A DNA stretch of 64,000 nucleotides from Burkholderiales bacterium. GTDB taxonomy: Bacteria > Pseudomonadota > Gammaproteobacteria > Burkholderiales > JACQAP01. The translations under genes and the position numbers were made by a program. Positions 15,401 through 59,352 of the stretch are shown piece by piece. The notes under the pieces are model-generated. The model made no database searches, was not told the origin of the DNA, and saw only the letters and a list, made by a program, of their open reading frames with translations. Location: positions 2,735 through 66,734 of the forward strand of contig DASZQJ010000092.1 of assembly GCA_035549715.1 (NCBI GenBank), written 5' to 3'. How positions within the stretch are numbered: position 1 is the stretch's first letter; each line of letters starts with the position of its first letter.

Positions 15401-18400
15401 ACGACGTGTTCACCATCGACTTCGACCGGCAGCAAGGCCCGGTCGGCGGCAATGACACGATCATCGGCGGCGAGGACGGCATCGGCAACATCATGCTGGG
15501 CGGCGGCGGCAACGACATCCTGCGCGGCGGCTCCGGCAACGACGTCATCCTGGGCGACGGCGGCTACGTCTACCGCAATGCCGCCTCGATCGTGACCCGC
15601 GTCGAGACCCGGTCCCCGGGCATCGGCGGCGTGGACGACATCGAAGGTGGCGCCGGCACGGACGTGATCATGGGCGGCGCCATGGGCGACACGATCAATG
15701 CGCCCTCCGGTGGCAAGATCATCCTGGGCGACAACGGCGTGGCGGTCCTCGACGGCGACAACCGTGACGTCTACAGCACCGACTACGACATCGGCGGCGA
15801 CGACGAGATCCGTGGCGGTGAGGACGGCCTGGGCAACATCATCATCGGCGGCGCCGGCAACGACACCAAGCTGTTCGGCGGCTCCGGCGACGACGTGATC
15901 CTGGGCGACAACGGCTACGTGCAGCGCGCGGCCGACGGCACGCTGATCCAGGTGCGCACCATCGCCCCGGGCATCGGCGGCGCCGACATCATCGAAGGCG
16001 GCGCGGGCACGGACGTGATCATGGGCGGCGCGATGGGCGACAAGATCACCGCGCCTTCCGGCGGCAAGATCATCCTGGGCGACAATGGCGTGGCCAACTT
16101 CGCCGGCGACGATCGCGACGTCTACTCGACCGATCCCGACATCGGCGGGGCGGACGAGATCATCGGCGGCGCCGATGGCGTGGGCAACATCATCATCGGC
16201 GGCGCGGACAGCGACACCAAGCTGTTCGGCGGCTCCGGCGACGACGTGATCCTGGGTGACAGCGGCTATGTGCAGCGTGCGGCCGACAAGTCGCTGGTCA
16301 AGGTCTACACCATCGCCCCGGGCGTGGGTGGCAAGGACGTGATCGAGGGCGGCGCCGGGACCGACGTCATCATGGGTGGTGCCGACGACGACAGGATCAC
16401 CGCCCCGACCGGCGGCAAGATCATCCTGGGCGACAACGGGGTGGCGAACTTTGCCGGCCCGGACCGCGACGTCTACTCCACGGACGAGGACATCGGCGGC
16501 GTCGACCTGATCATCGGCGGTGCCGACGGGGTGGGCAACATCCTGATCGGCGGCGCCAAGGGCGACACCATCAGCGGCGGCACGGGCGATGACGTCATCC
16601 TGGGCGACAGCGGCTATGTCCGCCGCGACGCGACCCGCAAGCTCGTGGAAGTGCACACGACGGCCCCGGCCATCGGCGGCGCGGACCACATCGAGGGCGG
16701 TGCCGGCTTCGACATCATCATGGGCGGCGCGGACGGCGACTTCATCAATGCGCCCACCGGCGGCAAGATCATCCTGGGCGACAACGGCCAGGCAAACCTC
16801 GCCGGCCCGGATCGCAATGTGTTCTCCACGGACGAAGCGATCGGCGGCGTCGACATCATCGTCGGCGGCAAGACGGGCGAGGGCAACATCATCATCGGCG
16901 GCGCAATGGGCGACGAGATCTCCGCGGGCACGGGAGACGACGTCATCCTTGGCGACAGCGGCCGCGTGGTGCGCCGGGCCGACGAGACCCTGGTGCGCGT
17001 CGAGACGACCGCCCCGGGCATCGGCGGGGCGGACAACATCCAGGCCGACGACGGCTTCGACGTGGTCTTCGGCGGCGCCGACGGCGACAACATCCAGGCG
17101 GGCCTCGACGCCAGCCGCGACGTGGTCGTGGGCGACAATGGCTACGCGGTGTTTGACGCCGGCGAGGTGCTCACCGAGATCCGCAGCACGGACGAGAACA
17201 TCGGCGGCGACGACAACATCCTCGTCGGCGACGGTGACGACTTCGTGATCGGCGGCATCGGCAGCGACTACATCAACATGGACCGCGCCACCGGCCTGCC
17301 GATCGGCAGCGACAACGGCAAGGACACGATCATCGGCGACAACGGCTACGCCCGCTTCGACTCCGTCGGCGGCAAGAGCCTGATCCGGGAGATCCGCACC
17401 ACCGCACCGCAGTACGGCGACCGCGACTTCATCTTCGCGGGCAACGGCCAGGACGTGGTGCTGGGCGGCAGCGGCGGGGACTTCATCGACGCGGGCATCG
17501 ACGGCAGCCGCGACATCGTGCTGGGCGACAATGGGGAGGCGTTCTTCAGCCCGACCGAGGTGCTGCTCACCATCCGCACCACGGACCCGACTTTCGGGGG
17601 CGACGACGACATCCGCACCGGCGACGGCGCGGACATCGTGCTGGGCGGTGCTGGCAACGACCTCATCCTGGCGAGCGGGGCGACCGGCTTCCAGGACGCA
17701 CGCGACCTGATCGCCCAGGGCAAGTACAACCAGCTGGATCCGGGTGATGCCGTGCGCGACATCGTGCTCGGCGACAACGGCGAAGCCAACTTCAACGCGG
17801 CCGGCGTGCTGCAGAACGTGAAATCCACCGATACCACGATCGGCGGCGATGACACCATCGTCACCGGCCGCGGCGACGACATCGTGATCGCCGGCATGGG
17901 CAGCGACAAGGTGCTGGCCGATGGCGGCGACGAGGTCCCGGACATGGTCATCGGCGACAGCGGCTACGCGACCTTCGACGGCAGCGCGGCCTTCCTGCCG
18001 GGCGAGGACGAGAAGATCCTGAGCTTCAATTTCACGGGTGCCGACAAGGGCGTGCTGACCGGCGTGGCCGGTGCCGGCGCCGCCCGGGCGGGCAACTGGA
18101 ACAACCTCAACGGCGGCGGCTATCGCGTCTACGGCGACGATGCGGGCGAAATCCTGTACTTCGACGACGGCTCGATTGCCCCCGGCATCGGCATCCAGTG
18201 GGGCGCGGACCTCGATTCGACGTCCAGGCACGACCCGAACAAGCTGCACCTGGAGGACCACCACCAGATCAACCCGGGTTCCAACCAGGACAAGACGCTG
18301 TTCGACGGCTACCTGACGTCCAACTCCAACGACACCGTGGGCGTGGACATCAGCGGCCTCAGCAGCCACTTCAAGTCCTACGACGTCTATGTCTACCTGG

Positions 18401-21400
18401 ACATGGACGACAGTGACAGCAAGTCCGGCACGTCCGTGCGCAGCATCGACGGCAACGGCCTCAAGTACTACCTGAACGACCCGGATGGCAACACGTTCAC
18501 GGGCACGTATGTCGAGGTGACGTCGACCACCGCCAGCGGCGCCCAGAAGGGCAACTACGTGGTGTTCCGGAACGTGACTTCGGACACGTTCAAGATCCGC
18601 ATCGACGACATCGACCCGAGGAACCAGGGCAACAAGCCCGGCGTCACGGGCGTGCAGGTGGTGGGCAGGAGCAACCCGATCGACCGCATCGAATCCATCG
18701 ATTCGGCCTCGGGCGGTGACGACATCATCCTCACGGGGGGTGGAGACGACATCGTGTTCGGCGGCGCCGGCAACGACATCATCAAGACGGCCGGCAACGC
18801 GGCCTACGGTGCCATCGACAACGACATCGTGGCGGGCGACGACGCGCGGGCGACGTTCATGAACGGCGAGTTGCGCAGCCTCGTCACGCTGGATGCCGAG
18901 ACCAATGCCAACGGCCCGGCCGGACGCTTCAATGACACGATCTGGACCGGCAACGGCGACGACGTGGTCATCGGCGGCAACGGCTCCGATTTCATCAATA
19001 CCACGGTGACGGCCGACGATTACGACTACGGCAACGTGTCGGTGATCAGCATGAAGTTCAACAGCCAGGTCGACCAGGGCGGCGTCACGGGCACCGCGGG
19101 TGCGGTGGCGGCCGACAACTGGAACAACCTGGCGAGCGCCGGCAAGGGCGCACAGGCCGGTCTGCTCGATGACGACGGCGGTTCGACGGGCGTCAAGGTC
19201 ACCTGGGGCGAGGAGCAGTACAACTACAAGACCAAGTCCTACGAGCTCACGGCGACGACCGACCGCGACACGCACGACCTGATCGACCCGTCTTCGCAGA
19301 ACGAACGCCTGTTCGAAAGCTCCATCGAGCGCGACGACTGCACGCTGGGTGTGGACCTGACGGGCCTGGGCTCGCTGGGAACCTACGACGTCTACGTGTA
19401 CTTCGACAGCGACGAGGCCGACAACCGCAACCAGGGCACCGCCGCGATGAAGATCACCGCGGGCGGCGTCAGCTACTACGTCAACGACCCGAAGGGCAAC
19501 ACCTTCGACGGGGAGTTCGTCGACGCGACGTCGACTGACAGGTACGCGCCGGGCGTGGGCAACTATGTCGTGTTCCGCGGCCTCACGCTCGACCAGCTCA
19601 AGATCCGCATCTCTGGAGACGAGTCGCTCGGGCGCTTTGCGGACGGACGGCCCACCATTTCCGGGATCCAGATCGTGTCCGGGGCCGACCGCGCCGGCGT
19701 CATCGACCAGCCGGCCGGCAAGATCGGTGGCGATTTCGACAACGACGTGGTGCTGGGCGACAACGCCGCCATCAACTGGTTCCATGGCCAGATGTACGAG
19801 GTCACGGCCACGAACCCGGTGGCGACGGTCCCCGATTCCGGCTTCCAGGCCGACACGATCGAAACGGGCGTGGGGGCGGACGTCGTCATCGGCGGCAACG
19901 GCGACGACAAGATCAAGGGTGGCGAGGGCAACGACCTGCTGCTCGGGGACAATGCCCACCTGCTGATGGACAACTCCCTGCTGCTCGGCCTGGGCGACTT
20001 CGACGAGGACAACTGGGACGACGGGCACCACCACCACGACCACTGGCACCACCATGACCACTGGCACCACCATCACTCGCACTTCAACCCCTACGACATC
20101 ATGGGGGTCGAACTGCTCAACGAGGACATCGGCGGCAACGATACGATCGAAGGCGGCCAGGACGACGACCTGATGTACGGCCAGGCCGGCGCCGACACCT
20201 TCGTGTTCGCGGGCTCGGAGCTGGGCGAGGATGCGGTGGTCGAGGCCGGCACGGACTTCCACGGCGATGACCATTGGGACTGGAACTTCGACTTCTGGCA
20301 CTGGGGCTATGACGCCCATGGCCATGACCATCATGACCACGATTACCACGGTCCCAACGACGTGGGTGACACGCTCGACTTCAGCCAGTTCAGCGGCCCG
20401 ATCAGCGTCGACCTGGGTGTTTCGCACGAGCAGACCGTCAGCGCGGGCAACCTCAAGCTGACGCTGTTCCACGGCGATGCCATCGAGAACGTGATCGGCA
20501 GTGAGTTCGCCGACTGGATCGACGGCAACGACCGCGACAACGTCATCCTCGGCCTGGGCGGCAATGACAGGATCAACGGCCAGGACGGCTACGACTTCAT
20601 CGACGGCGGCGACGGCGCCGATGAGATCAATGGCGGCGGTTACGGCAAGGGCCACTACGGGCACCAGTACTGCCACAGCTACTTCTACCTGTACGGCCAC
20701 TATTGGTATCGCGACGGGGATGAATCCGACGTGCTGCTGGGCGGCGCAGGCAATGACAAGATCTGGGGCGCCGGCGGCAACGACACCATCGAGGGTGGCG
20801 ACGGCGACGACCTGATCTATGGCAACGGCGGCGCCGACAGGATGTACGGCGGGGCCGGCAACGACAGGATGTACGGCAACGCCAGCGACGACTGGATGGA
20901 CGGCGGCGACGGCAACGACTGGCTGTATGGCGATGGCGGCAACGACACGCTCTACGGCGGTGCCGGCAACGATGTCATCTACGGCCAGAGCGGCAACGAC
21001 TGGATGGACGGCGGCGACGGCAACGACACGCTTTGGGCGGACGGCGGCAACGACGTCCTGCTCGGCGGTGCCGGCGACGACCTGCTGTACGGCCAGAGCG
21101 GCGACGACCTCATGGACGGCGGCGACGGCAACGACCAGCTGTGGGGCGACACCGGCCGCGACATCCTCAAGGGCGGCAGCGGCAACGACAAGCTCTACGG
21201 CGGCCGCGACGACGACGTGCTCAACGGCGGTGATGGCGACGACTACCTCGACGGCGAAGGCGATGACGACATCCTGCTCGGCGGTGCCGGAAACGACACC
21301 CTGAAGGGCAACGACGGTGACGACGTGATCCTCGGCCAGGACGGCAACGACACGGTCGACGGCGGCTGCGGCCGTGACCTCGTCGACGGCGGCGATGGCG

Positions 21401-22755: not shown

Positions 22756-22880
22756 CGCGACCGGCGCGTCCCGCGGCACACATGGCCCCAGGCGAACCGC
22801 GCACGCCGTGCCCGGTCAGCCGATTCGTGTTCTAATTGCGCCTGTTTGCACGGGCAAACCGTCTGATTTCAGGAGAGAAA

Positions 22881-23189
22881 ATGGCTGAGTCCAAGAACCA
22901 GGAAGTGAAGGGCGCCGAAGGCACCAAGATCAAGTGGGATGACTCGAACATGAAGAGCGCCTACGCCAACGTCTGCAACGTCACCAGCACGCGCGAGGAA
23001 GTCGTGATGCTGTTCGGCATCAACCAGGCCTGGAACCGCGGCCAGAAGGAAGTCACGATCCAGCTCACGGACCGGATCATCATCAGCCCGTACGCGGCCA
23101 AGCGCCTGGCCATGCTGCTGGACGGCGTGATGAAGGAGTACGAATCCCGCTTCGGCGCATTGCCGGTCGAACCGGTCGCCGCCAAGTAG
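22881..23189 (+). CDS. Small DUF3467-like protein (102 aa)
   Basis: ATG 22881 lies 4 nt after AGGAGAG (22871-22877). The core YANVCNVTSTREEVVMLFGINQAW...IISPYAAKRLAMLL matches my recollection of DUF3467. The track's earlier start at 22836 has no RBS. Confidence 0.75.
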   Translation: MAESKNQEVKGAEGTKIKWDDSNMKSAYANVCNVTSTREEVVMLFGINQAWNRGQKEVTIQLTDRIIISPYAAKRLAMLLDGVMKEYESRFGALPVEPVAAK

Positions 23190-23223: not shown

Positions 23224-24807
23224 TCAGGCGTCCTGCGCCCGCAGGAAGGCCTGGGCGCCGAGGTTCACCAGGACCTTTTCCAGGGCGGAGCCCAGCAGTT
23301 CGCGTACCGCTTTCTCGTCGGTGACCGGCGCGCCGCCGGCATCGGCCTTCAGCAGGAATTCCCTCGAGTTCACCGCCGCCATCATCGAATCCAGGATCTG
23401 GCCCGCATCGCGGCTGCCGTCGAGCAGCTTCAGGGTCTGGCGATGGATTTCGTCGAGGTTGATGGCCTCGCCCCGCAGGTTCGTCGCCTGGTAGCCCTGG
23501 ATGGCCTGCCAGCGCGCCAGGGGGCTGGTCGTGGGCCTGGCCGGGGCCACCCGGGTCAGGGCGAGGGGTGCCACGCGCATTTCCACCACTCCGGCGCCGA
23601 TCGCCGTCAGGATCTCGCTGGCCAGGAACTCGTCCACCGGCTCGTCGGCGGAAACCTTCTCCAGCGCGAGCTCTTCCCGGCACTTGTGCAGCAGCTCCTG
23701 GTAGCTGATCGGCACCGGCCATTCCCGCTGCAGCACCCGCATCGCCAGCTTGGTGACGGGCGCCTTGCAGACGATGCGCGAGCCGCTCGGCGTCTGGTAG
23801 GTCACCCGCACGGCGGGATCCAGCTGCGCGGGCTCCACGGGTGTGGCCGCCGAGGCCAGCCAGAACTGCCGCACCACGCCCGAGTCGATGGCGCGGTTCA
23901 GGCGGATGCCGTTGTGGCAAATGAGGGTCTTGCGGAAATAGCGGCAGCGCACGAAGTCCATGTACTGCTCCATGCGGACGATGTCATGTGCGCCCAGCTC
24001 GTGCAGCGTCTTGGCGGTATCGGCCGAGAAATTGGTCGAGATCATGGACGAGAACTCGGCGTCCCCGAGGTACTGCAGTCCGTTCACTGCCAGGCGCTGG
24101 GCGAACTCGTGGAAGTACATCGGCTGGTTGTGCTCTTCCAGGTATTCGTGGTGCAGGTAGTAGTCCGTCATCTTGTCGAGCTGCTTGAGCTCGGACTGGA
24201 GCAGGCGCTGGTAGGGCGTGTCGGATTTCGAAGTCGCCTGCGCGGCGAAGGCCACCAGGGACTTGGCCTGCTCCAGGCGCGTGTTGGCGTCGGCGAACTG
24301 GGCGCCGCGGTAGAACATCATGTCGCGCACGATGCCGCGGATGTGCCAGCCGGGGTAGACGTTGTAGCTGATGTAGGCCACGCCGTCGGGCGCGAGGTGG
24401 CGCTGCACGATCTCCAGCATCTTGGCCTGCACGCGCGGCGGCACCCACGAGTAGACGCCGTGGCTGATGATGTAATCGAACTGCCCGAGGCTGTCGTCGA
24501 CGTCGAGGATGTCCATGTGGCGCAGCTGGACGTTCTTGATGCCCAGGGCATGGATGGTCTTCCACCCCTCCGCGATCTGGTGCGACGAGAAATCCAGCCC
24601 CACGCACTGTGCGCCGGGGTGGATCTGCGAGATGGCCACCAGGTTGCCGCCCATGGAGCAGCCCAGCTCGAGAATCCGGGCCCCGTCGGCCGGTGGCGAT
24701 TGCAGGCCGAAGATCCTGGCGATCGCGGACAACCTCGCGGGGTGGGTTTCCGGGAAGGAAATGCTGGGGTAGGGAATGGCGTCGTAGGATTTTTGCAGGG
24801 TGTTCAT
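23224..24807 (-). CDS. Class I SAM-dependent methyltransferase with a long C-terminal 'methyltransferase regulatory' type domain (527 aa)
   Basis: The N-terminus YDAIPYPSISFPETHP and motif I ILELGCSMGGN are followed by about 300 aa typical of this two-domain family (from memory). The ORF has a clean start (CAT 24805-24807) and stop. Confidence 0.85.
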   Translation of the reverse strand: MNTLQKSYDAIPYPSISFPETHPARLSAIARIFGLQSPPADGARILELGCSMGGNLVAISQIHPGAQCVGLDFSSHQIAEGWKTIHALGIKNVQLRHMDILDVDDSLGQFDYIISHGVYSWVPPRVQAKMLEIVQRHLAPDGVAYISYNVYPGWHIRGIVRDMMFYRGAQFADANTRLEQAKSLVAFAAQATSKSDTPYQRLLQSELKQLDKMTDYYLHHEYLEEHNQPMYFHEFAQRLAVNGLQYLGDAEFSSMISTNFSADTAKTLHELGAHDIVRMEQYMDFVRCRYFRKTLICHNGIRLNRAIDSGVVRQFWLASAATPVEPAQLDPAVRVTYQTPSGSRIVCKAPVTKLAMRVLQREWPVPISYQELLHKCREELALEKVSADEPVDEFLASEILTAIGAGVVEMRVAPLALTRVAPARPTTSPLARWQAIQGYQATNLRGEAINLDEIHRQTLKLLDGSRDAGQILDSMMAAVNSREFLLKADAGGAPVTDEKAVRELLGSALEKVLVNLGAQAFLRAQDA

Positions 24808-25069: not shown

Positions 25070-26986
25070 TTGCCCATTAGCGACATGAATACGCAACCTG
25101 AGCCCCTGGACCCGCGGCCGCGTTCCCACGTCGCCGAGTTGCGCCGCACCGAACCCACGGTCGCGGACTGGCGCGCCTTTTCCGAAGCCTCCTCGCCGGA
25201 GGCCTATTGCCAGAGCTGGCTCAACCTGCAGTGCCTGATGATCCCGGGCTGCCTGGAAGGCGTGGTCGTGCTGCAGAAGCCCGGCGCCCAGGAATTCGTG
25301 CCCGCCGCATTCTGGCCCGCCGACGATCGCCGCAACCGCAGCCACCTCGCGGAAGTGACCGAGCGCACCCTGAAGGAAGGCCGCGGCGTCTTCAGCTCGC
25401 GCGAAGTGCCGTCCACGCTCGACCCGGAACGCATGCAGACGCGCTACCAGCTTGCCTACCCGGTGAAGCTCGACGGGGCGCTGCGCGGCGTGGTCACCGT
25501 GGAAATCGACCAGCGCCCGGAGAGCCAGGTCGAGGGCGTGATGCGCCAGCTGCAGTGGGGTGCCGGCTGGCTCGAGGTGATGCTGCGCCGGGGGCAATTC
25601 GACCCCGGCGAGATCGCGCGCAAGCGCCTCGCCTTCGTGGTGGAGCTGCTGTCCACCTTCCTCGAGCAGTCCAATTTCGAGGCGGCGGCCGCGGCCTGCG
25701 TGACCGAGCTCGCCGCCTTCCTCGGCTGCGACCGCGTCTCGCTGGGCGTGCTCGAGCGCCGCCGCATCCGCATGGTCGCCCTGTCCCACGCCACGCAGTT
25801 CGACCGCCACTCCAACCTGGCGCGCGCCATCGAGGCGGCGATGGAGGAGGCCGTCGACCAGCGCGAGACCATCCTCTACCCGGACGGCATGAGCGGTCGC
25901 CCCACGGTCGACCAGGCCCATGCGGCGCTGGCGACGGGCTTCGGCTCCGGGGTGGTCCTGACCCTGCCGCTCACCTCGCGCAGCCAGGTGGTGGGCGCGC
26001 TGTGCATGGAGCGGGCGGGCAACTATCGCTTCGAGCGGCCCGCGCTCGAACTGGCCGAAGGCGTGGCGGCCCTGATCGGTCCGCTCGCGGACATGCAGCG
26101 CGGCAACGAGCGCGCGCTGCCGGCGCACCTGGCCACCAGGGCGAGCGGCTTCTGGGAACGCCTCGCGGGGCCGCGCAATGCCGGGCTCAAGGTCGTCCTC
26201 CTGCTGGTCCTGGCGGTCATCGCCTACGTCAGCATCGCCAGCGGCACCTACCGGATCACCGCCGAGACCAACGTCGAGGGTTCGGTGCAGCGTGTGGTGG
26301 CCGCGCCCTTCCAGGGCTTCATCGCCGAGGCGAAGGTGCGGCCGGGCGACACGGTGAAGGCGGGCGACCTGGTCGCGCGCCTCGACGACCGCGACCTGCG
26401 CCTCGAGCGCCTCAAGACGCTCGCGCAGCGCGAGCAGTATTCCAAGCAGTACCGCGAGGCGATGGCCAAGGGCGATCGCGCGCAGATCAAGATCCTCGGC
26501 ACCCTGGTGGAGCAGCAGGACGCGCAGGTGCAGCTGCTCGACGAGCAGCTGTCGCGCACGACCATCGCAGCCCCGTTCGACGGCGTCGTGGTGAGCGGCG
26601 ACCTGAGCCAGCAGCTCGGGGCGCCGGTGGAACGCGGCCAGGTGCTGTTCGAGATCGCGCCCCTCGACAGCTACCGCGTGGTCCTGCAGGTGAACGAGCG
26701 CGACATCGCCGACGTTGCGGTCGGCCAGGCCGGCAAGCTGACGCTGTCCTCGCTGCCGGGGGAGAAGATCGACTTTCGCGTCGCCAAGATCACGCCCGTG
26801 AACACGCCCAAGGAGGGCCGCAACTTTTTCCGCGTCGAGGCGGCCCCGCTGGGAGGGATCGACCGCGTGCGCCCCGGCATGGAAGGGGTGGGCAAGATCG
26901 AGGTCGACGAGCGCCGCCTGATCTGGATCTGGACCCGCGACCTCGTGAACTGGGCCCGCCTGTGGGTCTGGTCGTGGATGCCCTGA
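25070..26986 (+). CDS. GAF-like sensor region fused to a HlyD-type membrane fusion protein (periplasmic adaptor)
   Basis: The track start is TTG 25070 and the first ATG is 25085. The ~370-aa cytoplasmic N-terminal region is GAF-like (...CVTELAAFLGCDRVSLGVLERRRIRMVALSHA...). One TM segment follows (GLKVVLLLVLAVIAYVSIA), then barrel-sandwich halves flanking a short coiled coil (VVAAPFQGFIAEAKVRPGDTVKAGDLVARLDD ... TTIAAPFDGVVVSGD). Confidence 0.8.
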   Translation: MPISDMNTQPEPLDPRPRSHVAELRRTEPTVADWRAFSEASSPEAYCQSWLNLQCLMIPGCLEGVVVLQKPGAQEFVPAAFWPADDRRNRSHLAEVTERTLKEGRGVFSSREVPSTLDPERMQTRYQLAYPVKLDGALRGVVTVEIDQRPESQVEGVMRQLQWGAGWLEVMLRRGQFDPGEIARKRLAFVVELLSTFLEQSNFEAAAAACVTELAAFLGCDRVSLGVLERRRIRMVALSHATQFDRHSNLARAIEAAMEEAVDQRETILYPDGMSGRPTVDQAHAALATGFGSGVVLTLPLTSRSQVVGALCMERAGNYRFERPALELAEGVAALIGPLADMQRGNERALPAHLATRASGFWERLAGPRNAGLKVVLLLVLAVIAYVSIASGTYRITAETNVEGSVQRVVAAPFQGFIAEAKVRPGDTVKAGDLVARLDDRDLRLERLKTLAQREQYSKQYREAMAKGDRAQIKILGTLVEQQDAQVQLLDEQLSRTTIAAPFDGVVVSGDLSQQLGAPVERGQVLFEIAPLDSYRVVLQVNERDIADVAVGQAGKLTLSSLPGEKIDFRVAKITPVNTPKEGRNFFRVEAAPLGGIDRVRPGMEGVGKIEVDERRLIWIWTRDLVNWARLWVWSWMP

Positions 26987-26993
26987 GCGCCCG

Positions 26994-29144
26994 ATGGCGG
27001 CCAACGACATCTTCAGTGCGTCCTGGCACCGCGTCAGCGGCCTGAGGCCGCGCCTGCGCGGCCACGCGCAGATGTCGCGGCACTTCTACCGCGGCCAGCT
27101 CTGGTACGTGCTGCAGGACCATTCCTCGCGACGCGTGCACCGGTTTGCCCCGACGGCCTATACGGTGATCGGCCTCATGGACGGCCACCGCACCGTCGGG
27201 GAGATCTGGGACGCGGCCTGCTCGAAGCTGGGCGACGATGCGCCCACCCAGGAGGAGATCATCCGCCTGCTCGCCCAGCTGCACGGCGCCGACATCCTGC
27301 AGTGCGAGATCCCGCCGGACGTGGACGAGATGCTGCGGCGGCGGGACAAGCTGCGCAGCATGAAGCTGATCGCACTGCTGATGAGTCCGCTGTCGATGAA
27401 GTTCCCGCTGTTCGACCCGGAACGCTTCCTCAATGCGACCGTCGGCCTCGTGCGGCCGCTGTTCACCTGGTACGGGGCGCTGCTCTGGCTGGCGATCGTG
27501 GCCGGCGCGGTGGTGGAGGCGGGTCTGCACTGGCCCGAGCTCACCAAGGACATCACCGACCGCGCGCTCGCCCCGCAGAACCTGCTGCTGATCTGGCTCA
27601 CGTTCCCGGTGCTCAAGGCCTTCCACGAGTTCGGCCACGCCTACGCGGTCAAGCGCTGGGGCGGGGAGGTGCACGAGATGGGCATCATGCTGCTGGTGTT
27701 CATGCCGGTGCCCTACGTGGATGCCTCCGCCGCGTCGGCCTTCCGCGAGAAGTACCCGCGCGTCGTGGTGGGCTCGGCCGGAATGCTGGTGGAGGCGGTG
27801 GTGGCCGCGCTGGCGGTGTTCGTATGGGTGAACGTGGAGCCGGGCCTGGTGCGCTCGGTCGCCTACAACGTGATCCTCATCGCCGGCGTCTCGACCCTGG
27901 TCTTCAACGCCAACCCGCTGCTGCGCTTCGACGGCTATTACATCTTTGGCGACCTCATCGAGATCCCCAACCTGCGGGCCCGCGCCAACCGCTATTTCAT
28001 GTACCTGGTCGAGCGCCACCTGCTCGGCATGGCCGAGAGCCAGGAGCCCGAAGGAACGCCGTCGGAAAAGCGCTGGATGCTGGCCTTCGCCATCAGCTCG
28101 TTCATCTACCGGATGTTCGTCACCTTCGCCATCGTCATGCTGGTGGCCGGCAAGTACTTCATCTTCGGCGTGATCCTCGCCGGCTTCGCCCTGGTGGGCG
28201 CGCTGGTGCTGCCGCTCGTGAAGGGCATCGCCTTCCTGCTCTACAGCCCGCGCCTGCGCCGCATGCGCCTGCGCGCGGCGGTGAGCACCACCCTTTTCGT
28301 GGGTGTACTCGGCGCGCTGGTCTTCCTGGTGCCGGCGCCCATGTGGACCCGGGCCGAAGGGGTGATCTGGGTCCCCGAGCAGGCGATCGTGCGCCCGGGC
28401 ACCGAGGGCTTCGTCGCCGAGGTGGTGGCGCGCCCGAACTCGCAGGTCAGGCCGGGCGATCCCATCCTGAAGCTCGACGAGCCGCTGCTGTCGGCGCACA
28501 TCCGGGTGCTGCGGGCGAAGGTCGAGCAGTACGAGGCGCAGTACCGTTCCGAGCGCTACGACGAGCACGGGCAGGTGCGCGCGGAACTGACCCTGGAGAC
28601 GCTGCGCTCCACGCAGGCCGAGCTCGCGCGCGCGCTCGAAAAGGCCGCGGCGCTGGAAGTCCGGGCGCCCGTGGAAGGCCGCCTGGTGCTGGCGCGCGCC
28701 GACGACCTGCCGGCGCGCTTCGTGCGCCAGGGCCAGGACGTGGCCTACATCGTCGACGGCAAGCAGATGACCGCGCGCGTGGTGGTCCCGCAGCAGGACA
28801 TCGACCTGGTGCGCAGCCGCACCCGCGCGATCGAAGTGCGCCTCACGGAGGACGTCGGCGTGGTGCTGCCGGCCAGGGTCCGGCGCGAAGTCCCGGCGGC
28901 GACGGCCGAGCTGCCCAACCTCGCGCTCGCGATGGACGGCGGCGGCAAGGTGGCGCTGGATCCGCGCGAGAAGACCCCGCGGGCGCTGCAGAAGTTCTTC
29001 GACTTCGAGCTGAGCCTGCCGGTGCGCGAGAACGTGCACATCGGCAGCCGCATCTACGTCCGCTTCGACCATGGCTCCGAGCCGCTGGCCTTCCAGTGGT
29101 ACCGCAGCCTGCGCCAGGTCTTCCTCAAGCAGCTGAATGTCTGA
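26994..29144 (+). CDS. Site-2-protease (peptidase M50) domain fused to a HlyD-type membrane fusion domain (716 aa)
   Basis: HEFGH at 27624-27638 and the second S2P motif NPLLRFDG at 27912-27935 sit within a polytopic hydrophobic region. The C-terminal half reads ...IVRPGTEGFVAEVVARPNSQVRPGDPILKLDE..coiled coil..EVRAPVEGRLVL. The start is 7 nt after the upstream stop. Confidence 0.85.
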   Translation: MAANDIFSASWHRVSGLRPRLRGHAQMSRHFYRGQLWYVLQDHSSRRVHRFAPTAYTVIGLMDGHRTVGEIWDAACSKLGDDAPTQEEIIRLLAQLHGADILQCEIPPDVDEMLRRRDKLRSMKLIALLMSPLSMKFPLFDPERFLNATVGLVRPLFTWYGALLWLAIVAGAVVEAGLHWPELTKDITDRALAPQNLLLIWLTFPVLKAFHEFGHAYAVKRWGGEVHEMGIMLLVFMPVPYVDASAASAFREKYPRVVVGSAGMLVEAVVAALAVFVWVNVEPGLVRSVAYNVILIAGVSTLVFNANPLLRFDGYYIFGDLIEIPNLRARANRYFMYLVERHLLGMAESQEPEGTPSEKRWMLAFAISSFIYRMFVTFAIVMLVAGKYFIFGVILAGFALVGALVLPLVKGIAFLLYSPRLRRMRLRAAVSTTLFVGVLGALVFLVPAPMWTRAEGVIWVPEQAIVRPGTEGFVAEVVARPNSQVRPGDPILKLDEPLLSAHIRVLRAKVEQYEAQYRSERYDEHGQVRAELTLETLRSTQAELARALEKAAALEVRAPVEGRLVLARADDLPARFVRQGQDVAYIVDGKQMTARVVVPQQDIDLVRSRTRAIEVRLTEDVGVVLPARVRREVPAATAELPNLALAMDGGGKVALDPREKTPRALQKFFDFELSLPVRENVHIGSRIYVRFDHGSEPLAFQWYRSLRQVFLKQLNV

Positions 29145-31071
29145 CCGCGGACTGGCCGCGTCGGCCGACGCCTACCCCGAGCGCGAGGAGCGGCGCCCGT
29201 CCATGGTCGAAAAGGTGCTGCTCTCGCTCGCCTACCTGCCCCAGTCGCTGCTGGCGCGGGCGCCGTCCCCGTCGACCGTCGCGGGCGTCCAGGCCCGGGC
29301 GAAACTGCCGGCCGACTTCGCCGCGCGGGTGCGCGACCTGCGCTACGAGTTGCGCCGCACCGGGCTCGGCAGCGCCGGCCTGGAGCAGGCGGTCGCGCTG
29401 GCCGCGGCGCAGGTGCACGCGCAACTCGGCATCAAGCCCGGCCCGGGGCCGATTTGCGCCGCGCTGGCGCTGGCCCGGGGCGGCCGCTGTGTCGAGGCCA
29501 CCGACGTGGGTGACTGGCCGCTGGCCGTGGCGCTGGCCGCCGTGGCGGTGGCGCTGGCCGGCATCCCGGTGCACGTCATCACGGTGACCGCACATCTGGC
29601 GCGGCGCGACGCCGAGGCGATGCGCCCCCTGTACGCCGCGTTCGGCCTGTCGGTGGGCGTGGTCGAGGAAACCACGCAGGAGGCGGACCGGCGCCAGGCC
29701 TACGGCGCCGACGTCGCCTACTGCGTGCATCGCGAGGTGGCGCTCGATTACCTGCGCGATCGCCTGGTGCTCAAGGGCCGCCCGCGCGCGCTGCGACTGC
29801 GCACCGAGGCGCTCACGTCCCCGAACCCGCGCGCCCAGCACCTGATGCTGCGCGGCCTGCAGTGCGCCATCGTTTGCGAGGGGGAAACCATCCTGGTCGA
29901 CGCCGCCCAGACCCCGATCACGATTTCCGGGCATGCCAGCGCATCGCAGGAGGCCGCCTGGCTCGTCCAGGGCCTGCAGATGGCGCGGGCGCTCGTGCCC
30001 GGCGCCGAATACGAGATCCCCGAAATCGGTCTGGCGCGGCTGACCGACGCGGGCCGCGCCAGGCTGGCGCAGATGGCCCGCCAGCTGCCCGGGGTCTGGC
30101 AGGGGGCGCGCCGGCGGGAGGAGATCGTGCAACTCGCGCTGGTGGCCGAGCGCATGCTGGAAAAGGACCGGCACTACGAAGTGGCGGGCGAAAGCCTGAC
30201 GGTGGCCGAGGAGGTCCTGCGCCAGCACGCCGGCGACGCGGGCAACGCCAGGCTGCTGCGGCTGCTGCTCGAGAGCAAGGAGAACTGCGCCCTGAGCGGG
30301 GCGCGGGAGACGCTGGCGCGCATCGGCTACCAGCGCTTCTTCCGCCGCTACCTGCGGCTGTCGGCGCTGAGCCTGGGGGCGCGGCAGGTGAGCCGCGAGC
30401 TGTGGGGGATCTACCGGCTGCGGCGCGTCGTCGCGGCCCCGGGCGAGCCGGCGCTGGGCGTACGGCTGCCGGATCGCTTCTATGCCGACAAGGCGAGCGG
30501 CGCAGAAGCGGTGCTGGCACGGGTTCGCGAGTTGCGCGCCCACGGGCACCCGGTGCTGGTCGTCACGCGCACGCCACAGGCCGCGGCGGCCTGGTCACAG
30601 CTGCTGGAAACCGGCGGCGTGCCCAACCAGCGCCTGGCGGGCAGCCAGGACGCGAAGGAGGAGGAAGCCTTCGGGCAGGTCTGCGCGCCGGGAAGGGTCA
30701 CGGTCGCACCGTATTTCGCCGCGCGCGGCAAGCGCGCGGAGGTCATGGCGGCCTCCGCGGACAAGGGCGGCTTGCGGATCATCCAGGTGCAGCCGCTCGC
30801 CTATGGCCGCCAGCTGCAGTATCTGGTGGAGCGGGGCATCCCGCGCGGGTCCAGCGGCAGCGTGCAGCGCATGGTGGTGATGGACGACGACCTGGTGGGC
30901 ATCTACGTGCCGGGGTGGTGGGTGCGCTGGCGCGGGATGCCGCTGCGCCGGGCGATGCTGCGCTACTGCCAGTGGGCTGCCGCGCGCGACCACGCCCAGG
31001 CGCGCAGCGAATTGCTGCGGGTGGAGGATTACCTCGGGGACGTGTTCGCCTTCTCGGGCCGGCAGGGCTGA
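29137..31071 (+). CDS. SecA-like protein (NBD1-PPXD-NBD2 only, 644 aa) with degenerate ATPase motifs
   Basis: Colinear with E. coli SecA as I remember it: [31 protein letters not shown] vs [46 protein letters not shown] vs [30 protein letters not shown]...[20 protein letters not shown] vs GGLHIIGTERHESRR...GSSRFYLSMEDALMRIF. The Walker A equivalent is ATDVGDWP (29494-29523 region) instead of MRTGEGKT. The DEVD equivalent is CEGE (29875-29886). ATG 29137 overlaps the upstream stop (29142-29144). Confidence 0.8.
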   Translation: [644 protein letters not shown]

Positions 31072-31075: not shown

Positions 31076-31885
31076 TCAGAGCAGGCGGACCCGGCACTTC
31101 ACCCCCGCCGGGATGCGGTTGCCGGGATTGGGAAGCTGCAGGCGCACGCCGAACGTGCCGCTCGCCGCGTCGATGACGCGATCCACCACCTTCACCGAAG
31201 CCTCGTGCCGGCCCCCGATGGGCTGCTCCGGCGTGACCTGGGCGCGCATGCCGACCTTGATCCTGCCGTAGAGCGTCACGGGCAGGATCACTTCCACGTT
31301 GAGCGGGTCGATTTCCGCCAGCTTGGCGATGGGCTGCTTCACGTCGTTGGTGGTGGCGAACTCGCCGGGCTTCTGCTGCACGTCGACCACCACGCCGGTG
31401 AGGGGGCTGCGGATCGTGCGCAGCGCCAGCACTTCCTCGCTGCGCTTGACCTCCAGCTCCGCCAGCTTCTGGTTCTCGCGCGCCTGGCGCAGCTGCTCGC
31501 TCGCGAACTGGTACTCCGCCACGGCCTCGTCCTTGGCATTCACGGACACGAAGTTCTGCTTGTACAGCTCCTCGGCGCGGACCATCTTCTTCTGCGCGAG
31601 GTCCAGGCGCGCCTCGGCGGCCTTGATCTCGCCCTGCATGTTGGCGCGCGATTTGGCCAGGTCGAGCGCCGCGCGCTCCGGGCCGGATTCGAGCGTGGCG
31701 ATGACCTGGCCGCGCTTGATGGTCTCCCCGCGCTGGATGAGCACCGACTCGATCACGGCTTCCACCGGGCTGCGGATCTCGATCTGCTGGCGGGCCTCGA
31801 TCAGGCAGTCGTACTCGTCGGCGGCGGAGGCTGCGCCGGCTGCCGCCAGCGCCAGGGCGCAGAGCGGACGGAAGGAGGGAGTCAT
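31076..31885 (-). CDS. Short periplasmic adaptor (RND/HlyD-type MFP, 269 aa) with a signal peptide
   Basis: The likely start is ATG at 31885 (MTPSFRPLCALALAAAGAASA signal); the track start at 32017 is less likely. It has a lipoyl-like half (IRSPVEAVIESVLIQRGETIKRGQVIATLE), a coiled coil, a second half (IRSPLTGVVVDVQQKPGE) and a beta-barrel. It is convergent with the SecA-like gene, with 4 nt between the stop codons. Confidence 0.8.
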   Translation of the reverse strand: MTPSFRPLCALALAAAGAASAADEYDCLIEARQQIEIRSPVEAVIESVLIQRGETIKRGQVIATLESGPERAALDLAKSRANMQGEIKAAEARLDLAQKKMVRAEELYKQNFVSVNAKDEAVAEYQFASEQLRQARENQKLAELEVKRSEEVLALRTIRSPLTGVVVDVQQKPGEFATTNDVKQPIAKLAEIDPLNVEVILPVTLYGRIKVGMRAQVTPEQPIGGRHEASVKVVDRVIDAASGTFGVRLQLPNPGNRIPAGVKCRVRLL

Positions 31886-32316: not shown

Positions 32317-34053
32317 ATGCGCACCGGACCGTTCGAACGCTCCCCGCGCGACCGCCGCCGCGGCGACAGCATGCAGGAAAGCGAGGCCCGCTTCCGCGCG
32401 CTGGTGCAGAATTCCTTCGACATCATCACCATCCACGACGAGAGCGGCCTCACCCATTACGAATCGCCGGCTGCCTCGCGCATCCTCGGCTACCCGCCGG
32501 GGTCGCTGATCGGCAAGACGCCGTTCGAGACCGTGCATCCCAAGGACGTGGCCCGCGCGCGCGACGCCTTCGGCGCCGTGCTCAAGGGCGAAGTCTCGCC
32601 GCTGCCGACGGTGCTGCGCTTTCGCCATGCCGACGGCTCCTGGATCCACCTCGAGGTGCTGGGCAACAACCTGCTCGACCATCCCGGCATCCGCGGCATC
32701 GTGCTCACCTCGCGCGACGTCAGCGAGCGCAAGCGCGCCGAGCAGCGTGCCCAGTACCTCGCCAACTACGACGTGCTCACCGGCCTGCCGAACCGCTTCC
32801 TCGTGCAGGACCGCCTGACCCAGGCCGTGGCCCAGGCCCACCGCAACAAGCTGCGCGTGGGCCTGATGCACATCGACCTCGATCGCTTCAAGCTGGTCAA
32901 CGAGACCCTCGGGCACTACGTGGGCGATGCGCTGCTCAAGCAGGCGGCCGACCGCATCCGCAAGCTGGTGCGCGAAGGCGACACCGTGGCGCGGGTGGGG
33001 GGCGACGAGTTCACCATCGTCTATCCGAACGTGAGCAACCTGCCGGCGCTGTCGATCACCGCCGAACGCCTGCTCGAGGACCTGGCGCGGCCCTTCCCGA
33101 GCGAGGGGCAGGACCTGTTCGTCTCGGCCTCCCTGGGCATCAGCCTGTATCCCGACGACGCGGGCAGCGTCGACGAGCTCATCAAGCACGCCGACGCGGC
33201 GATGTACAGCGCCAAGCACCTGGGCCGCAACAACTACCAGTTCTTCACGACGGACCTCAATCGCGAAGTGCAGGAGCGCATGATGATCGAGGCGGGCCTG
33301 CGCACCGCCATCCACCGCAACGAGCTGTCGCTGGTGTTCCAGCCCAAGATCGACCTCGCCACCCGGCGGGTGTTCGGCGCCGAGGCCCTGCTGCGCTGGA
33401 ACCATCCCAAGCTGGGCCTGATCTCGCCGGCGCGCTTCGTGCCCGTGGCGGAGGAGGCGGGCCTGGTCGGGGCGATCGGGGAATGGGTGCTGCGCACGGC
33501 CTGCAGGCAGATCCGCCAGTGGCAGGACGCGGGCTTCCCCATGCAGGTCGCGGTCAACGTTTCCGCGCGCCAGTTCCAGCAGTACGACGTCGCGGACCTG
33601 GTGCTGGGCATCATGCGCGAGTCCGGCGTGCGCGCCGAGCACCTCGAGGTGGAGCTCACCGAGAGCGCGGTCATGAACGACGCCGAGAGCTCCATCGTGA
33701 CGCTGGAGCGCCTGGCCGATTCCGGCGTGCAGATCGCCATCGACGATTTCGGCACCGGCTACTCGAGCCTGTCGTACCTGAAGCGCCTGCCGCTCGACGT
33801 GCTCAAGATCGACCAGTCGTTCGTGCGCGACATCTCTTCCGACCCGAACGATGCGGCAATCGTGCGCGCCATCATCACGCTCGCGCGCAGCCTGGGCATC
33901 AAGGTGATCGCGGAAGGGGTGGAGAACGAGGCCCAGCTCGCCTTCCTCAACGCCTACGGGTGCCAGTACGCGCAGGGCTACCTGTTCGGCAAGCCGCTCA
34001 CCTCGGCGGAGTTCGAGCAGCTGCTCGGCGCGACCTCCGCCGCCGGCGCCTGA
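32317..34053 (+). CDS. PAS-GGDEF-EAL signalling protein (c-di-GMP turnover)
   Basis: PAS (SEARFRALVQNSFDIITIHD), GGDEF (RVGGDEFTIV) and EAL (GAEALLRW ... DDFGTGYSSLSYL ... KIDQSFV). The start is ATG 32317 or ATG 32371. Confidence 0.9.
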   Translation: MRTGPFERSPRDRRRGDSMQESEARFRALVQNSFDIITIHDESGLTHYESPAASRILGYPPGSLIGKTPFETVHPKDVARARDAFGAVLKGEVSPLPTVLRFRHADGSWIHLEVLGNNLLDHPGIRGIVLTSRDVSERKRAEQRAQYLANYDVLTGLPNRFLVQDRLTQAVAQAHRNKLRVGLMHIDLDRFKLVNETLGHYVGDALLKQAADRIRKLVREGDTVARVGGDEFTIVYPNVSNLPALSITAERLLEDLARPFPSEGQDLFVSASLGISLYPDDAGSVDELIKHADAAMYSAKHLGRNNYQFFTTDLNREVQERMMIEAGLRTAIHRNELSLVFQPKIDLATRRVFGAEALLRWNHPKLGLISPARFVPVAEEAGLVGAIGEWVLRTACRQIRQWQDAGFPMQVAVNVSARQFQQYDVADLVLGIMRESGVRAEHLEVELTESAVMNDAESSIVTLERLADSGVQIAIDDFGTGYSSLSYLKRLPLDVLKIDQSFVRDISSDPNDAAIVRAIITLARSLGIKVIAEGVENEAQLAFLNAYGCQYAQGYLFGKPLTSAEFEQLLGATSAAGA

Positions 34054-41301: not shown

Positions 41302-41443
41302 AGGGCCGTGAATACCGTGAATATCGTGAATAACGTGAATATCGAGGAAGCAGGTTTGACGCGACGCCTTCGCCCGCATCGGGCAGTCGTCATTGCGACA
41401 TTCACGGCATTCACGTTATTCACGATATTCACGGTATTCACGG
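41283..41443. repeat. Inverted repeat made of 9-bp tandem units (CGTGAATAN x4-7 versus NTATTCACG x5), with perfect 35-bp arms at 41306-41340 and 41409-41443 and a 68-bp spacer
   Basis: The left arm CCGTGAATACCGTGAATATCGTGAATAACGTGAAT is the exact reverse complement of ATTCACGTTATTCACGATATTCACGGTATTCACGG. Degenerate extra units overlap the last yfhM codons. The right arm encodes the (X-F-T)x5 segment of the PbpC membrane anchor. Confidence 0.95.
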
Positions 41444-43870: not shown

Positions 43871-43887
43871 GGGTCCGGCTGCAATCC

Positions 43888-58958: not shown

Positions 58959-58968
58959 GCGGCGCCCT

Positions 58969-59280: not shown

Positions 59281-59338
59281 GTCGATGCTCCCTGTCGATG
59301 TAGTCGGAACACTCTGCGCCGGGGACGCGGCGCGGGGG

Positions 59339-59352
59339 TTGACACAGATCAA
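59339..59352. promoter_or_regulatory. FNR/Anr-type box TTGAC-ACAG-ATCAA in a divergent intergenic region
   Basis: Perfect half-sites, 59 nt from the elaB-like start (minus strand) and 100 nt from the mgtA-like start (plus strand). A weaker second site, TTGAT-CCAG-GACAA, lies at 59378-59391. Confidence 0.7.

Follow-up and report, generated by a model that had tools for sequence, protein, structure and literature searches.

A protein combining an RRE domain, an M50 protease and a periplasmic adaptor belongs to a conserved cassette often found beside giant LEPR-XLL/RTX proteins

What might a bacterium do with a site-2 protease (S2P) and an HlyD-type periplasmic adaptor (MFP) joined in a single polypeptide? 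The question is raised by an ORF of a Burkholderiales bacterium lying in a window of 64,000 nucleotides, by which we mean the whole stretch of DNA analysed (contig DASZQJ010000092.1). The original prediction had placed both domains in this ORF, and our analyses agreed with it in that the reading frame is uninterrupted, both halves were identified and the peptide strings quoted at the time occur exactly in it. The prediction would have fallen if two separate genes had been joined here by a sequencing or assembly frameshift, but this artefact is ruled out, and we leave it virtually no probability. Specifically, a homologue search returned more than 7,100 relatives of the fusion, the best 120 of which are about 689-735 aa long with one exception at 601 aa; 5,927 cluster representatives were found at E < 1e-30, most of them full-length; and the fusion is kept at about 30% identity in relatives from Planctomycetota, Verrucomicrobia and Gemmatimonadota. 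In addition, independent metagenome contigs from soil and rhizosphere samples cover the region without an insertion or deletion, one (run X3) spanning 26800-29215 with 11 substitutions and no gaps and the other (run X1) spanning 26800-28752 with no differences.

We found that the protein consists of three modules, RRE, M50 and MFP, and not two; the earlier two-part description was borne out for M50 and MFP but had overlooked the N-terminal PqqD/RRE domain. The match of this domain to PF05402 (PqqD) scored 26.6 bits (Pfam cut-off 23.4) and was also obtained with 40 of the 42 homologues aligned. In the AlphaFold2 model (mean pLDDT 84.6 for the 716-aa protein), the domain contains three strands (residues 25-32, 35-42 and 47-51) and three helices (53-60, 68-82 and 86-98), so that both marks of a RiPP recognition element, the PF05402 match and the three-strand/three-helix winged-helix fold, are present; that it binds a leader is inferred. 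The NCBIfam model for RRE-S2P daptide proteases, NF041824, aligns with residues 39-408 (E 3.6e-43), but at 148 bits the protein falls short of the equivalog cut-off of 300 and cannot be assigned to that family, and its match to the YydH/LiaK model was weak. The N-terminal part of the fusion is nevertheless of the RRE-S2P type, as in RiPP leader peptidases, and an RRE fused to S2P serves as the leader peptidase in daptide biosynthesis (PMC10028931).

In the protease module, HEFGH (residues 211-215, nt 27624-27638) lies within helix 194-221 and NANPLLRFDG (residues 305-314, nt 27906-27935) follows helix 285-305, which fulfils both motif requirements for an M50 protease, HExxH inside a TM helix and NxxPxxxxDG at the end of another. 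Residues H211, E212, H215, N305, N307, P308 and D313 are invariant in the 42 homologues (NxNPxxxxD for the second motif), and a beta-hairpin (residues 229-242) is located between TM2 and TM3; the HEFGH and NxxPxxxFDG motifs that had been noticed amid TM helices are therefore intact. Peptidase_M50 (PF02163) matched residues 203-279 of the 716-aa protein at 17.3 bits, below the cut-off of 27.2, but it was matched by all 42 aligned homologues at E <= 0.01 (best 7.8e-8), and distant relatives of the fusion exceeded the cut-off with 28-39 bits. Structure comparison lent no support to the M50 fold, the top 50 Foldseek matches all being MFPs, and a PDB sequence search with the 716-aa protein returned no M50 chain. 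Based on the model helices and charge analysis, the predicted topology is of seven TM helices with the N-terminus inside and the C-terminus outside, so that the catalytic site of the protease would lie on the cytoplasmic side of the membrane, and the MFP in the periplasm. With such a topology, proteolysis would therefore be physically tied to a periplasm-spanning adaptor, as had been proposed, the proteolytic activity itself being inferred.

The remaining residues, 446-716, satisfy the definition of the MFP fold, a barrel-sandwich with a helical hairpin followed by a beta-barrel: in the model, helices 497-520 and 531-552 form the hairpin, strands 447-495 and 555-565 lie on either side of it, and residues 584-697 make up the barrel. 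The best PDB matches of the model were MexA, AcrA, MacA and ZneB (Foldseek E 1e-11 to 1e-8, probability 1.0), a PDB profile search with the fusion protein found HlyD (8dck, E 2.3e-5) and also MacA, and HlyD_3 matched residues 556-636 at 33 bits (Pfam cut-off 22.2). Profile and structure comparison thus both identify an HlyD-type MFP, and the claim did not founder on a C-terminal half unlike MFPs. The partners expected of an MFP, an ABC, RND or MFS pump together with a TolC-family channel, are not complete, no pump gene having been found at any locus.

Table 1. Features of the window (positions count from the first letter of the window)
Feature	Position	Strand	Remarks
Giant RTX-repeat protein, candidate cargo	1..22683	+	At least 7,560 aa in window; N-terminus off window
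DUF3467 protein	22878..23189	+	103 aa; PF11950 E 3e-23
PKMT-type protein methyltransferase	23224..24807	-	MethyTransf_Reg, PKMT_2nd and Methyltransf domains
GAF-TM-MFP	25070..26986	+	GAF 203-337; one TM ~370-392; HlyD_3/HlyD_D23 397-593
RRE-M50-MFP fusion protein	26994..29144	+	716 aa; ATG start
PqqD/RRE domain	27105..27299	+	aa 38-102; predicted beta3-alpha3 fold aa 25-98
7-TM M50 protease body	27468..28328	+	aa 159-445
Periplasmic MFP domain	28329..29141	+	aa 446-716; lipoyl/barrel-sandwich, alpha-hairpin, beta-barrel
SecA-like protein	29137..31071	+	644 aa; NBD1, insert, NBD2
Periplasmic MFP	31076..31885	-	~269 aa from Met45; TIGR01730 RND_mfp 121 bits (above cut-off); HlyD_D23
PAS-GGDEF-EAL protein	32317..34053	+	Domain matches; adjoins cassette

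The gene of the fusion is part of a conserved cassette of five to six genes, encoding a DUF3467 protein, a tandem-GAF-MFP, the RRE-M50-MFP protein, a truncated SecA-like motor, a periplasmic MFP and, often, TolC. This order was conserved in 80 genome loci and about 100 further loci, and the taxa include Burkholderiales, Desulfobacterota, Nitrospirota, Gammaproteobacteria, Planctomycetota, Myxococcota and others. Cultured carriers include Achromobacter piechaudii NBRC 102461 (L209), Marinobacter suaedae chi1 (L152) and Pelomonas parva LYH14W (L090). Of the other components, the GAF-TM-MFP accompanies the fusion always, and the DUF3467 protein, the SecA-like motor and the third MFP usually do. 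The DUF3467 gene, sometimes duplicated, comes first in most loci, and its product, which is cytoplasmic and has no hydrophobic segment, is the most conserved component (homologues 80-99% identical). Its AlphaFold2 model was unusable (pLDDT 50), its only PDB profile match was weak and partial, to a helicase (domain E-value 0.88), and a SecB-like identity found no support (hhalign probability 0.2%, no Pfam SecB match). The GAF-TM-MFP, made up of a cytoplasmic GAF sensor region, a single hydrophobic segment and a periplasmic HlyD-type adaptor, is encoded immediately 5' of the M50-MFP gene in 74 of the 80 loci. The short periplasmic MFP, which has a signal-like N-terminal segment, is present in 56 of the 80; its gene is convergent in the window and co-directional in most other taxa. 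A TolC-family gene follows it in 20 of the 80 loci and an OEP gene in one further case (L203), and no TolC-family gene is adjacent to the cassette in the window. Among the loci examined, the PKMT-type gene was found inserted in the cassette only in two close Burkholderiales loci (L001 and L004) and is a lineage-specific accessory gene. The PAS-GGDEF-EAL protein is possibly a lineage-specific regulator; the same architecture is encoded downstream in L055 and L060, and CHASE-PAS-GGDEF-EAL downstream in L199. A scan for promoters and terminators gave nothing above chance.

No ABC, RND or MFS transporter gene was present in the cassette or its flanks at the loci inspected, and no ABC exporter was found within 10 kb at any of them or in the 41 kb of the window downstream. 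Some ORFs about 600 aa long that follow the cassette were suspected to be ABC pumps but proved to be unrelated genes. The cassette does not qualify as a type 1 secretion system (T1SS): MFPs, TolC and RTX substrates are present, but the ABC component is absent from all inspected loci.

The ATPase-like member of the cassette is the SecA-like protein, whose gene begins 8 nt before the M50-MFP gene ends. The 644-aa product, which has no C-terminal SecA domains, matched SecA_DEAD (E 1.5e-48) and P-loop_SecA, with all full-length SecA models below their cut-offs. A canonical orthologue aligned to residues 22-617 of Clostridioides difficile SecA2 (6sxh; E 7.6e-147), with which it shares NBD1, PPXD and NBD2; unlike SecA2, however, it stops where the scaffold helix begins and so has none of the C-terminal parts that engage SecY (wing domain, two-helix finger and C-terminal tail), and there is no SecY2. 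At the Walker A position, the window protein reads ATDVGDWPL where most orthologues have TGEGKT; in the lineage of the window neither Walker motif, A or B, is intact, both being degenerate, and the protein cannot be classed as a SecA or SecA2, for which the full domain set and intact Walker motifs would be needed. The gene is also absent from some loci (L069, L074, L113, L123, L152, L164, L169 and L180). Because of these losses and degenerate motifs, the energy source of the system is unresolved, at least in the window's lineage.

If the cassette has a substrate, where is it encoded? Conserved small ORFs or leader-peptide genes had been suggested as something to look for nearby; small precursor genes were not found there, but a leader was, the LEPR-XLL leader of the adjoining giant RTX proteins. 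We know of no receptor or peptidase for LEPR-XLL, an N-terminal motif carried by many giants, and to our knowledge the bacterial export of ten-thousand-residue proteins is largely unexplained. In the window, the reading frame of the giant ORF is open from base 1; the protein matched RTX families (E 2.7e-53), and after its C-terminal RTX block comes a Peptidase_M10-like domain with the sequence HEIGHVLGFDH. Its C-terminal ~280 aa are common to giant ORFs preceding the cassette in many loci, and a homologue search with this C-terminal domain found only fragments named RTX or calcium-binding. The fragment shares 43% identity over 814 aa with the giant ORF of another locus, L205, which has LEPR-XLL (NF012209, 28.1 bits) at its N-terminus. 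Among the 43 loci whose upstream flank reaches at least 3 kb, 22 carry on the same strand an ORF of 600 aa or more ending no more than 900 nt upstream of the cassette, and on four long contigs giants of 5,415, 4,928, 14,332 and 10,665 aa end just before DUF3467. Nineteen LEPR-XLL N-termini adjoin the cassette, with 3-15 Lys/Arg in the 40 residues preceding the motif (9-15 in 13 of them), and all 12 that were run against NF012209 exceeded its cut-off. Where the N-terminus is visible, the leader of these giants is very basic and ends in LEPRxLLSA(D/T). For example, in L024 a complete 792-aa protein with LEPR-XLL and RTX repeats is encoded directly 5' of the cassette. A 2026 preprint places LEPRxLL on Chlorochromatium giant proteins, and the Chlorobium chlorochromatii genome has an extra, horizontally acquired secA co-expressed with LEPRxLL giants. 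In our scan of that genome with SecA-like patterns, the matches were swamped by the housekeeping SecA.

Taken together, the data may be explained by a model in which the 716-aa protein is the core of an envelope-spanning cassette dedicated to the adjoining giant LEPR-XLL/RTX protein, a reading that we hold to be evenly poised between right and wrong. The link between the cassette and the giant rests on gene neighbourhood alone, and leader binding, cleavage and export are all inferred. Under this model, the RRE domain would bind the N-terminal LEPR-XLL leader as RRE domains bind RiPP leaders, and the M50 site would remove it on the inner side of the membrane. Together with TolC, the three MFPs may form a periplasmic duct through which the unfolded giant would exit, the inner-membrane channel being unassigned; the SecA-like clamp and motor might feed the chain where it is intact; and the RTX repeats, driven by Ca2+ to fold once outside, may contribute a pulling force. 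In its widest form, the model would make the cassette a previously unrecognised diderm secretion system for proteins of 5,000-14,000 residues, working without an ABC transporter or a SecYEG channel, in which LEPR-XLL would serve as the secretion signal and the M50-adaptor fusion would act both as its receptor and as the signal peptidase; this is offered tentatively, and we rather doubt that it holds in full. It counts against the model that RTX blocks at the C-terminus typically mark proteins exported C-terminus first by an ABC-type T1SS.

The RTX blocks near the C-terminus of the giants would also fit a role in anchoring and release, in which a conventional ABC-type T1SS encoded elsewhere exports the giant C-terminus first while the RRE-M50-MFP and GAF-MFP proteins only keep its LEPR-XLL leader at the inner membrane, so that the adhesin stays tethered by way of the duct until a signal sensed by GAF or through c-di-GMP leads to cutting of the leader and release, a functional analogue of the action of LapG/LapD on LapA. 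The GAF sensor fused to one MFP, the PAS-GGDEF-EAL genes adjoining the cassette in Burkholderiales loci and the absence or degeneration of the SecA-like gene in some lineages also agree with such an accessory role. However, the lack of an ABC exporter, already described for the inspected loci and for the window downstream, speaks against it. A release switch would also need less than the cassette supplies, namely three MFPs, in many cases TolC and in most an intact SecA-type motor that includes PPXD. We consider such a role unlikely.

The two remaining explanations dispense with the giants. Were the RRE-M50 part to remove the leader of a small ribosomal peptide for export by the MFPs, with DUF3467 or some unannotated short ORF as the possible source, the giants would be unrelated neighbours, but giant LEPR/RTX genes recur beside the cassette across phyla. 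It is true that, among curated models, the daptide leader peptidase NF041824 comes closest, with YydH/LiaK matched weakly, and that DUF3467 is small and sometimes tandem-duplicated, as precursor genes often are; the NF041824 score is nevertheless far under its cut-off, the cassette has no conserved modification enzymes, and DUF3467 is 80-99% conserved over its whole folded core and lacks a hypervariable core-peptide region. We therefore think a RiPP-like pathway very improbable. A generic efflux adaptor serving an unlinked RND or ABC pump, or regulated intramembrane proteolysis of an anti-sigma factor, is scarcely credible: neither accommodates the RRE domain or the SecA-like partner, and the neighbourhood has no conserved gene for a pump, a sigma factor or an anti-sigma factor. 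In their favour are the database name, 'efflux RND transporter periplasmic adaptor subunit', and the finding that drug-efflux adaptors are the best matches to the MFP fold.

The proposed handling of the giant leader by the fusion protein has partial parallels in known systems. The daptide protease MpaP and the YydH/LiaK proteases (NF041824, NF058609) likewise have an N-terminal RRE/PqqD domain fused to M50 and likely share the job of leader removal at the membrane, but the 716-aa protein has an extra periplasmic MFP domain of 270 aa, is found in diderms and has a putative substrate thousands of residues long, and no daptide or epipeptide biosynthesis genes are conserved near the cassette. In type 1 exporters with a peptidase-containing ABC transporter (PCAT), such as colicin V CvaAB-TolC, the ABC pump bears a cytoplasmic cysteine peptidase of the C39 type; as inferred for the cassette, an N-terminal leader is recognised and cut by a protease of the export machine working with an MFP and a TolC-family channel. 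The cassette, by contrast, has its protease, an M50, on the adaptor, lacks an ABC pump and is associated with a SecA-like ATPase. MexA, AcrA, MacA and HlyD share the fold of residues 446-716, and TolC-family genes are present in a quarter of the cassette loci; in contrast to these adaptors, the fusion is anchored by a 7-TM protease and not by a lipid or single helix, the two helices of its hairpin are short, at about 22-24 residues each, and each system has three different MFPs and no cognate pump. PEP-CTERM/exosortase, GlyGly-CTERM/rhombosortase and MYXO-CTERM/myxosortase are pairs of a sorting signal and an intramembrane protease, in which, similarly, many large surface proteins share a short conserved motif at one terminus, matched with a dedicated membrane protease; LEPR-XLL differs in being N-terminal and in having as its candidate protease an M50 fused to an adaptor, a pairing not previously described.

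A full-text literature search found no paper on the RRE-M50-MFP fusion or the cassette, the only leads being the daptide RRE-S2P paper and the 2026 LEPRxLL preprint. The fusion is a concrete, testable candidate for both the receptor and the peptidase of LEPR-XLL. If the model is true, an adaptor-borne intramembrane protease, a SecA-type motor and TolC would represent a new design of trans-envelope exporter, and RRE-dependent leader recognition would extend from small natural-product peptides to giant proteins. The thousands of members of the family are listed under misleading generic names, and the family is present in cultured strains.

The original prediction read the RRE-M50-MFP protein as a site-2 protease joined to an HlyD-type adaptor. 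Both parts were recovered from this window, whose G+C content is about 69%, but Pfam searches revealed three modules rather than two: PqqD (residues 38-102, 26.6 bits against a cut-off of 23.4), Peptidase_M50 (residues 203-279, 17.3 bits, under the cut-off of 27.2 for the window's single sequence) and HlyD_3 (residues 556-636, 33 bits against 22.2). The predicted protease motifs, HEFGH and NxxPxxxFDG, are present at residues 211-215 and, as NANPLLRFDG, at 305-314. In NCBIfam, the top model was NF041824, the daptide RRE-fused intramembrane metalloprotease, which covered residues 39-408 with an E value of 3.6e-43 and a score far under the curated cut-off, and RND_mfp matched residues 462-637.

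Features of the cassette and of its surroundings in the window
Feature	Position	Strand	Remarks
Giant ORF	1..22683	+	open frame of at least 7,560 codons from base 1; stop 195 nt before DUF3467 start
Terminator-like hairpin and T-run	22844..22859		between giant-gene stop and DUF3467 start
DUF3467 protein, 103 aa	probable start 22878		first gene of cassette
PKMT-type protein lysine methyltransferase	23224..24807	-	between DUF3467 and GAF-MFP
GAF-MFP, 638 aa	upstream of RRE-M50-MFP		GAF region, one TM helix, HlyD-type adaptor
RRE-M50-MFP ORF	26994..29144	+	ATG start, 716 codons
SecA-like protein, 644 aa	29137..31071		downstream of RRE-M50-MFP; SecA_DEAD, E 1.5e-48
Periplasmic MFP	after SecA-like gene		convergent
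PAS-GGDEF-EAL protein	32317..34053		adjoins cassette
Alpha-2-macroglobulin, bacterial, 1,946 aa	35461..41301
PBP1C-type penicillin-binding protein	41308..43584		immediately after alpha-2-macroglobulin
P-type ATPases	43810..46350, 47493..50051, 58945..61968		three in 18 kb

An AlphaFold2 model built on the alignment (mean pLDDT 84.6) placed an RRE fold of three strands followed by three helices at residues 25-98, and seven long helices at 159-178, 194-221, 253-280, 285-305, 356-387, 389-417 and 425-445, with HEFGH on the second, the NxNP motif at the end of the fourth and a beta-hairpin (229-242) in the TM2-TM3 interval. From residue 447 the model has an adaptor architecture, with strands around a helical hairpin (497-520, 531-552) and then a beta-barrel. 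The top 50 Foldseek matches in the PDB were MexA, AcrA, MacA, ZneB and EmrA (E 1e-11 to 1e-8, probability 1.0), and a profile search of PDB sequences returned HlyD of the haemolysin T1SS (8dck, E 2.3e-5) and MacA, bearing out the proposal that the C-terminal half is MFP-like. Because MFP matches took up the whole Foldseek list, the M50 fold itself was left without a structure comparison. Basic residues gather at the cytoplasmic helix ends, for example PRLRRMRLR at 418-427, and together with the odd number of helices they indicate an N-in, C-out topology; this model would put the RRE and the active site in the cytoplasm or at the inner leaflet, and the MFP in the periplasm.

A search of 5.8 billion proteins found more than 7,100 homologues, the best 120 of which were about 689-735 aa long, bar one entry of 601 aa, with query coverage of 96-100% in nearly all. 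When 1.84 billion cluster representatives were searched exhaustively with a profile, 5,927 matched at E < 1e-30, and almost all of the best 150 were about 715 aa in length. In a 42-sequence alignment H211, E212, H215, N305, N307, P308 and D313 were invariant, and Peptidase_M50, PqqD and HlyD_3 matched 42, 40 and 40 sequences, respectively. Relatives of about 30% identity from Planctomycetota, Verrucomicrobia and Gemmatimonadota were also 700-770 aa long; in those scanned, M50 was over the Pfam cut-off, and six of seven had HlyD or lipoyl-type signals C-terminal to it. In addition, the window sequence was found nearly unchanged in at least 20 metagenome runs from soil, root and rhizosphere (ten studies), with one independent contig covering the ORF from end to end, ungapped and with 11 substitutions, and a second spanning 26800-28752 with zero differences. 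The original prediction would have been refuted by a frameshift joining two separate genes; this did not hold, being excluded by the full-length homologues, the distant fused relatives and the gap-free independent contigs. In databases, members of the family carry generic or misleading names.

The RRE-M50-MFP gene shows translational coupling on both sides: it starts 7 nt beyond the upstream stop, and its own stop overlaps the next start by 8 nt. We found the order DUF3467, GAF-MFP, RRE-M50-MFP, SecA-like and MFP wherever the contig was long enough among 80 genome loci (including Burkholderiales, Desulfobacterales, Nitrospira, Gammaproteobacteria, Planctomycetota, Omnitrophota and Deferribacteres), and the identical order in about 100 others. 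A TolC-family gene lies 3' of the short MFP in 20 of the 80 loci and in L203, a further homologous locus (TIGR01844, E 3.6e-37 in locus L070; PF02321 in L203). The cassette, the flanks that were inspected and the 41 kb of downstream window sequence contained no ABC, RND or MFS pump. RRE-M50-MFP and GAF-MFP share 30% identity across 115 aa. DUF3467 is tandemly duplicated in several loci (L004, L060, L065, L072 and L203), and at L069:3410-4660 (-), a locus without a SecA-like gene, one protein combines a DUF3467-like domain at its N-terminus with about 300 aa of uncharacterised C-terminal sequence. The PKMT-type methyltransferase, with MethyTransf_Reg and a PKMT C-terminal winged helix, also occurs in L001 and L004, and L199 has a different methyltransferase and a SapC-family gene at a similar place; the PKMT-type enzyme might act on the giant protein. 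Terminator-like sites in the scanned region were not above chance in number.

A canonical SecA-like orthologue, that of locus L006, aligned to residues 22-617 of C. difficile SecA2 (E 7.6e-147) and ended at the start of the scaffold helix; it therefore has NBD1, PPXD and NBD2 and lacks the wing domain, two-helix finger and C-terminal tail. The preprotein-binding PPXD (PF01043) was recorded in four long contigs, and Walker A is TGEGKT in most orthologues. Walker A is gone from the protein of the window and from those of its closest relatives, L001, L002, L004, L011, L027 and L078; in the window, its position reads ATDVGDWPL and the DEAD box CEGE. Since full length is kept despite this loss, the protein of the window lineage looks, from its motifs, like a pseudo-ATPase that has been kept as a clamp or for some structural role. 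Minimal cassettes without the SecA-like gene are present in L152 (Marinobacter suaedae chi1), L074, L113, L123, L164, L169 and L180, and in two of these, L074 and L152, the MFP genes are directly followed by a gene for a LEPR-XLL protein.

The placing of a giant ORF ahead of the cassette is usual in other loci too. Of 43 loci whose upstream flank reached 3 kb or more, 22 had an ORF of 600 aa or longer on the same strand that ended no more than 900 nt from the first cassette gene. For example, proteins of 5,415, 4,928, 14,332 and 10,665 aa end just 5' of DUF3467 in the gene calls of four long contigs, and a giant RTX ORF abuts the cassette in the cultured Achromobacter piechaudii NBRC 102461. 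The window giant has a C-terminal RTX block (E 2.7e-53) and, at its end, a Peptidase_M10-like HEIGHVLGFDH domain kept in giant cassette neighbours across orders; its C-terminal 280 aa or so are kept in giant upstream ORFs of taxa that range from Burkholderiales to Desulfobacterales, Nitrospira and Methylococcaceae. Its final RTX block is preceded by stretches rich in histidine, DDGHHHHDHWHHHDHWHHHHSHF and HGHDHHDHDYHG among them. All 19 visible N-termini of large cassette neighbours carry the motif (E/P)xLEPRxLLSA(D/T), preceded within 40 residues by 3-15 Lys/Arg (9-15 in 13 of them), and NF012209 ('LEPR-XLL domain', model name LEPR-8K) was above cut-off in all 12 N-termini run. The N-terminus of the window giant lies outside the window; its fragment shares 43% identity across 814 residues with the giant ORF of locus L205, which has an N-terminal LEPR-XLL leader (28.1 bits). 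In L024, the gene immediately 5' of the cassette encodes a complete protein of 792 aa with both this leader and RTX repeats. A 2026 preprint described LEPRxLL at the N-termini of Chlorochromatium proteins of 20,647 and 36,806 aa, which by its account lack known transport signals and are co-expressed with a horizontally acquired extra secA.

Leader peptides are the ligands of RRE domains, and an RRE-S2P fusion is the proposed daptide leader peptidase (PMC10028931). The RRE segment is among the best-conserved parts of the protein in this family, and LEPR-XLL likewise stays invariant from one phylum to the next. From these points we infer an export sequence in which the basic LEPR-XLL leader would be captured by the RRE at the inner face of the membrane and removed at the M50 site, three distantly related MFPs and a TolC-family channel would form a periplasmic duct, and the SecA-like clamp, where intact, would feed the unfolded chain. 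Everything beyond gene adjacency, that is, leader capture, cleavage, duct and feeding, is inference. The inner-membrane passage is not identified, some lineages, that of the window among them, have a missing or degenerate energy source, and DUF3467 has no assigned role. A further weak point is that RTX-rich C-termini, such as those of the giants, are usually a sign of C-terminus-first ABC export.

The cassette resembles tripartite MFP/TolC exporters, with a leader peptidase added, and we rate it as a variant of these, export and cleavage both being inferred; the chance that it forms a separate secretion system is substantial. The leading alternative, favoured by the GAF sensor and by the PAS-GGDEF-EAL genes close to the cassette, is that it serves for anchor and release, as an accessory to a T1SS encoded elsewhere. 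Readings of RRE-M50-MFP as a RiPP-type protein, an efflux adaptor or a signalling protein match the gene context badly. The parts of the proposed exporter, RRE-S2P, MFP, SecA motor and TolC, are already known singly; their combination was found in no curated NCBIfam model, and a full-text search across 8.3 million papers gave no description of it.

L055 and L060 also have a PAS-GGDEF-EAL protein downstream, and a CHASE-PAS-GGDEF-EAL protein lies downstream in L199; such neighbours are hints of c-di-GMP control in Burkholderiales. Farther along the window, the alpha-2-macroglobulin and PBP1C genes form a classic pair, and the P-type ATPases comprise one heavy-metal type (HMA and ATPase-cat_bd) and two cation types (Cation_ATPase_N and Cation_ATPase_C).
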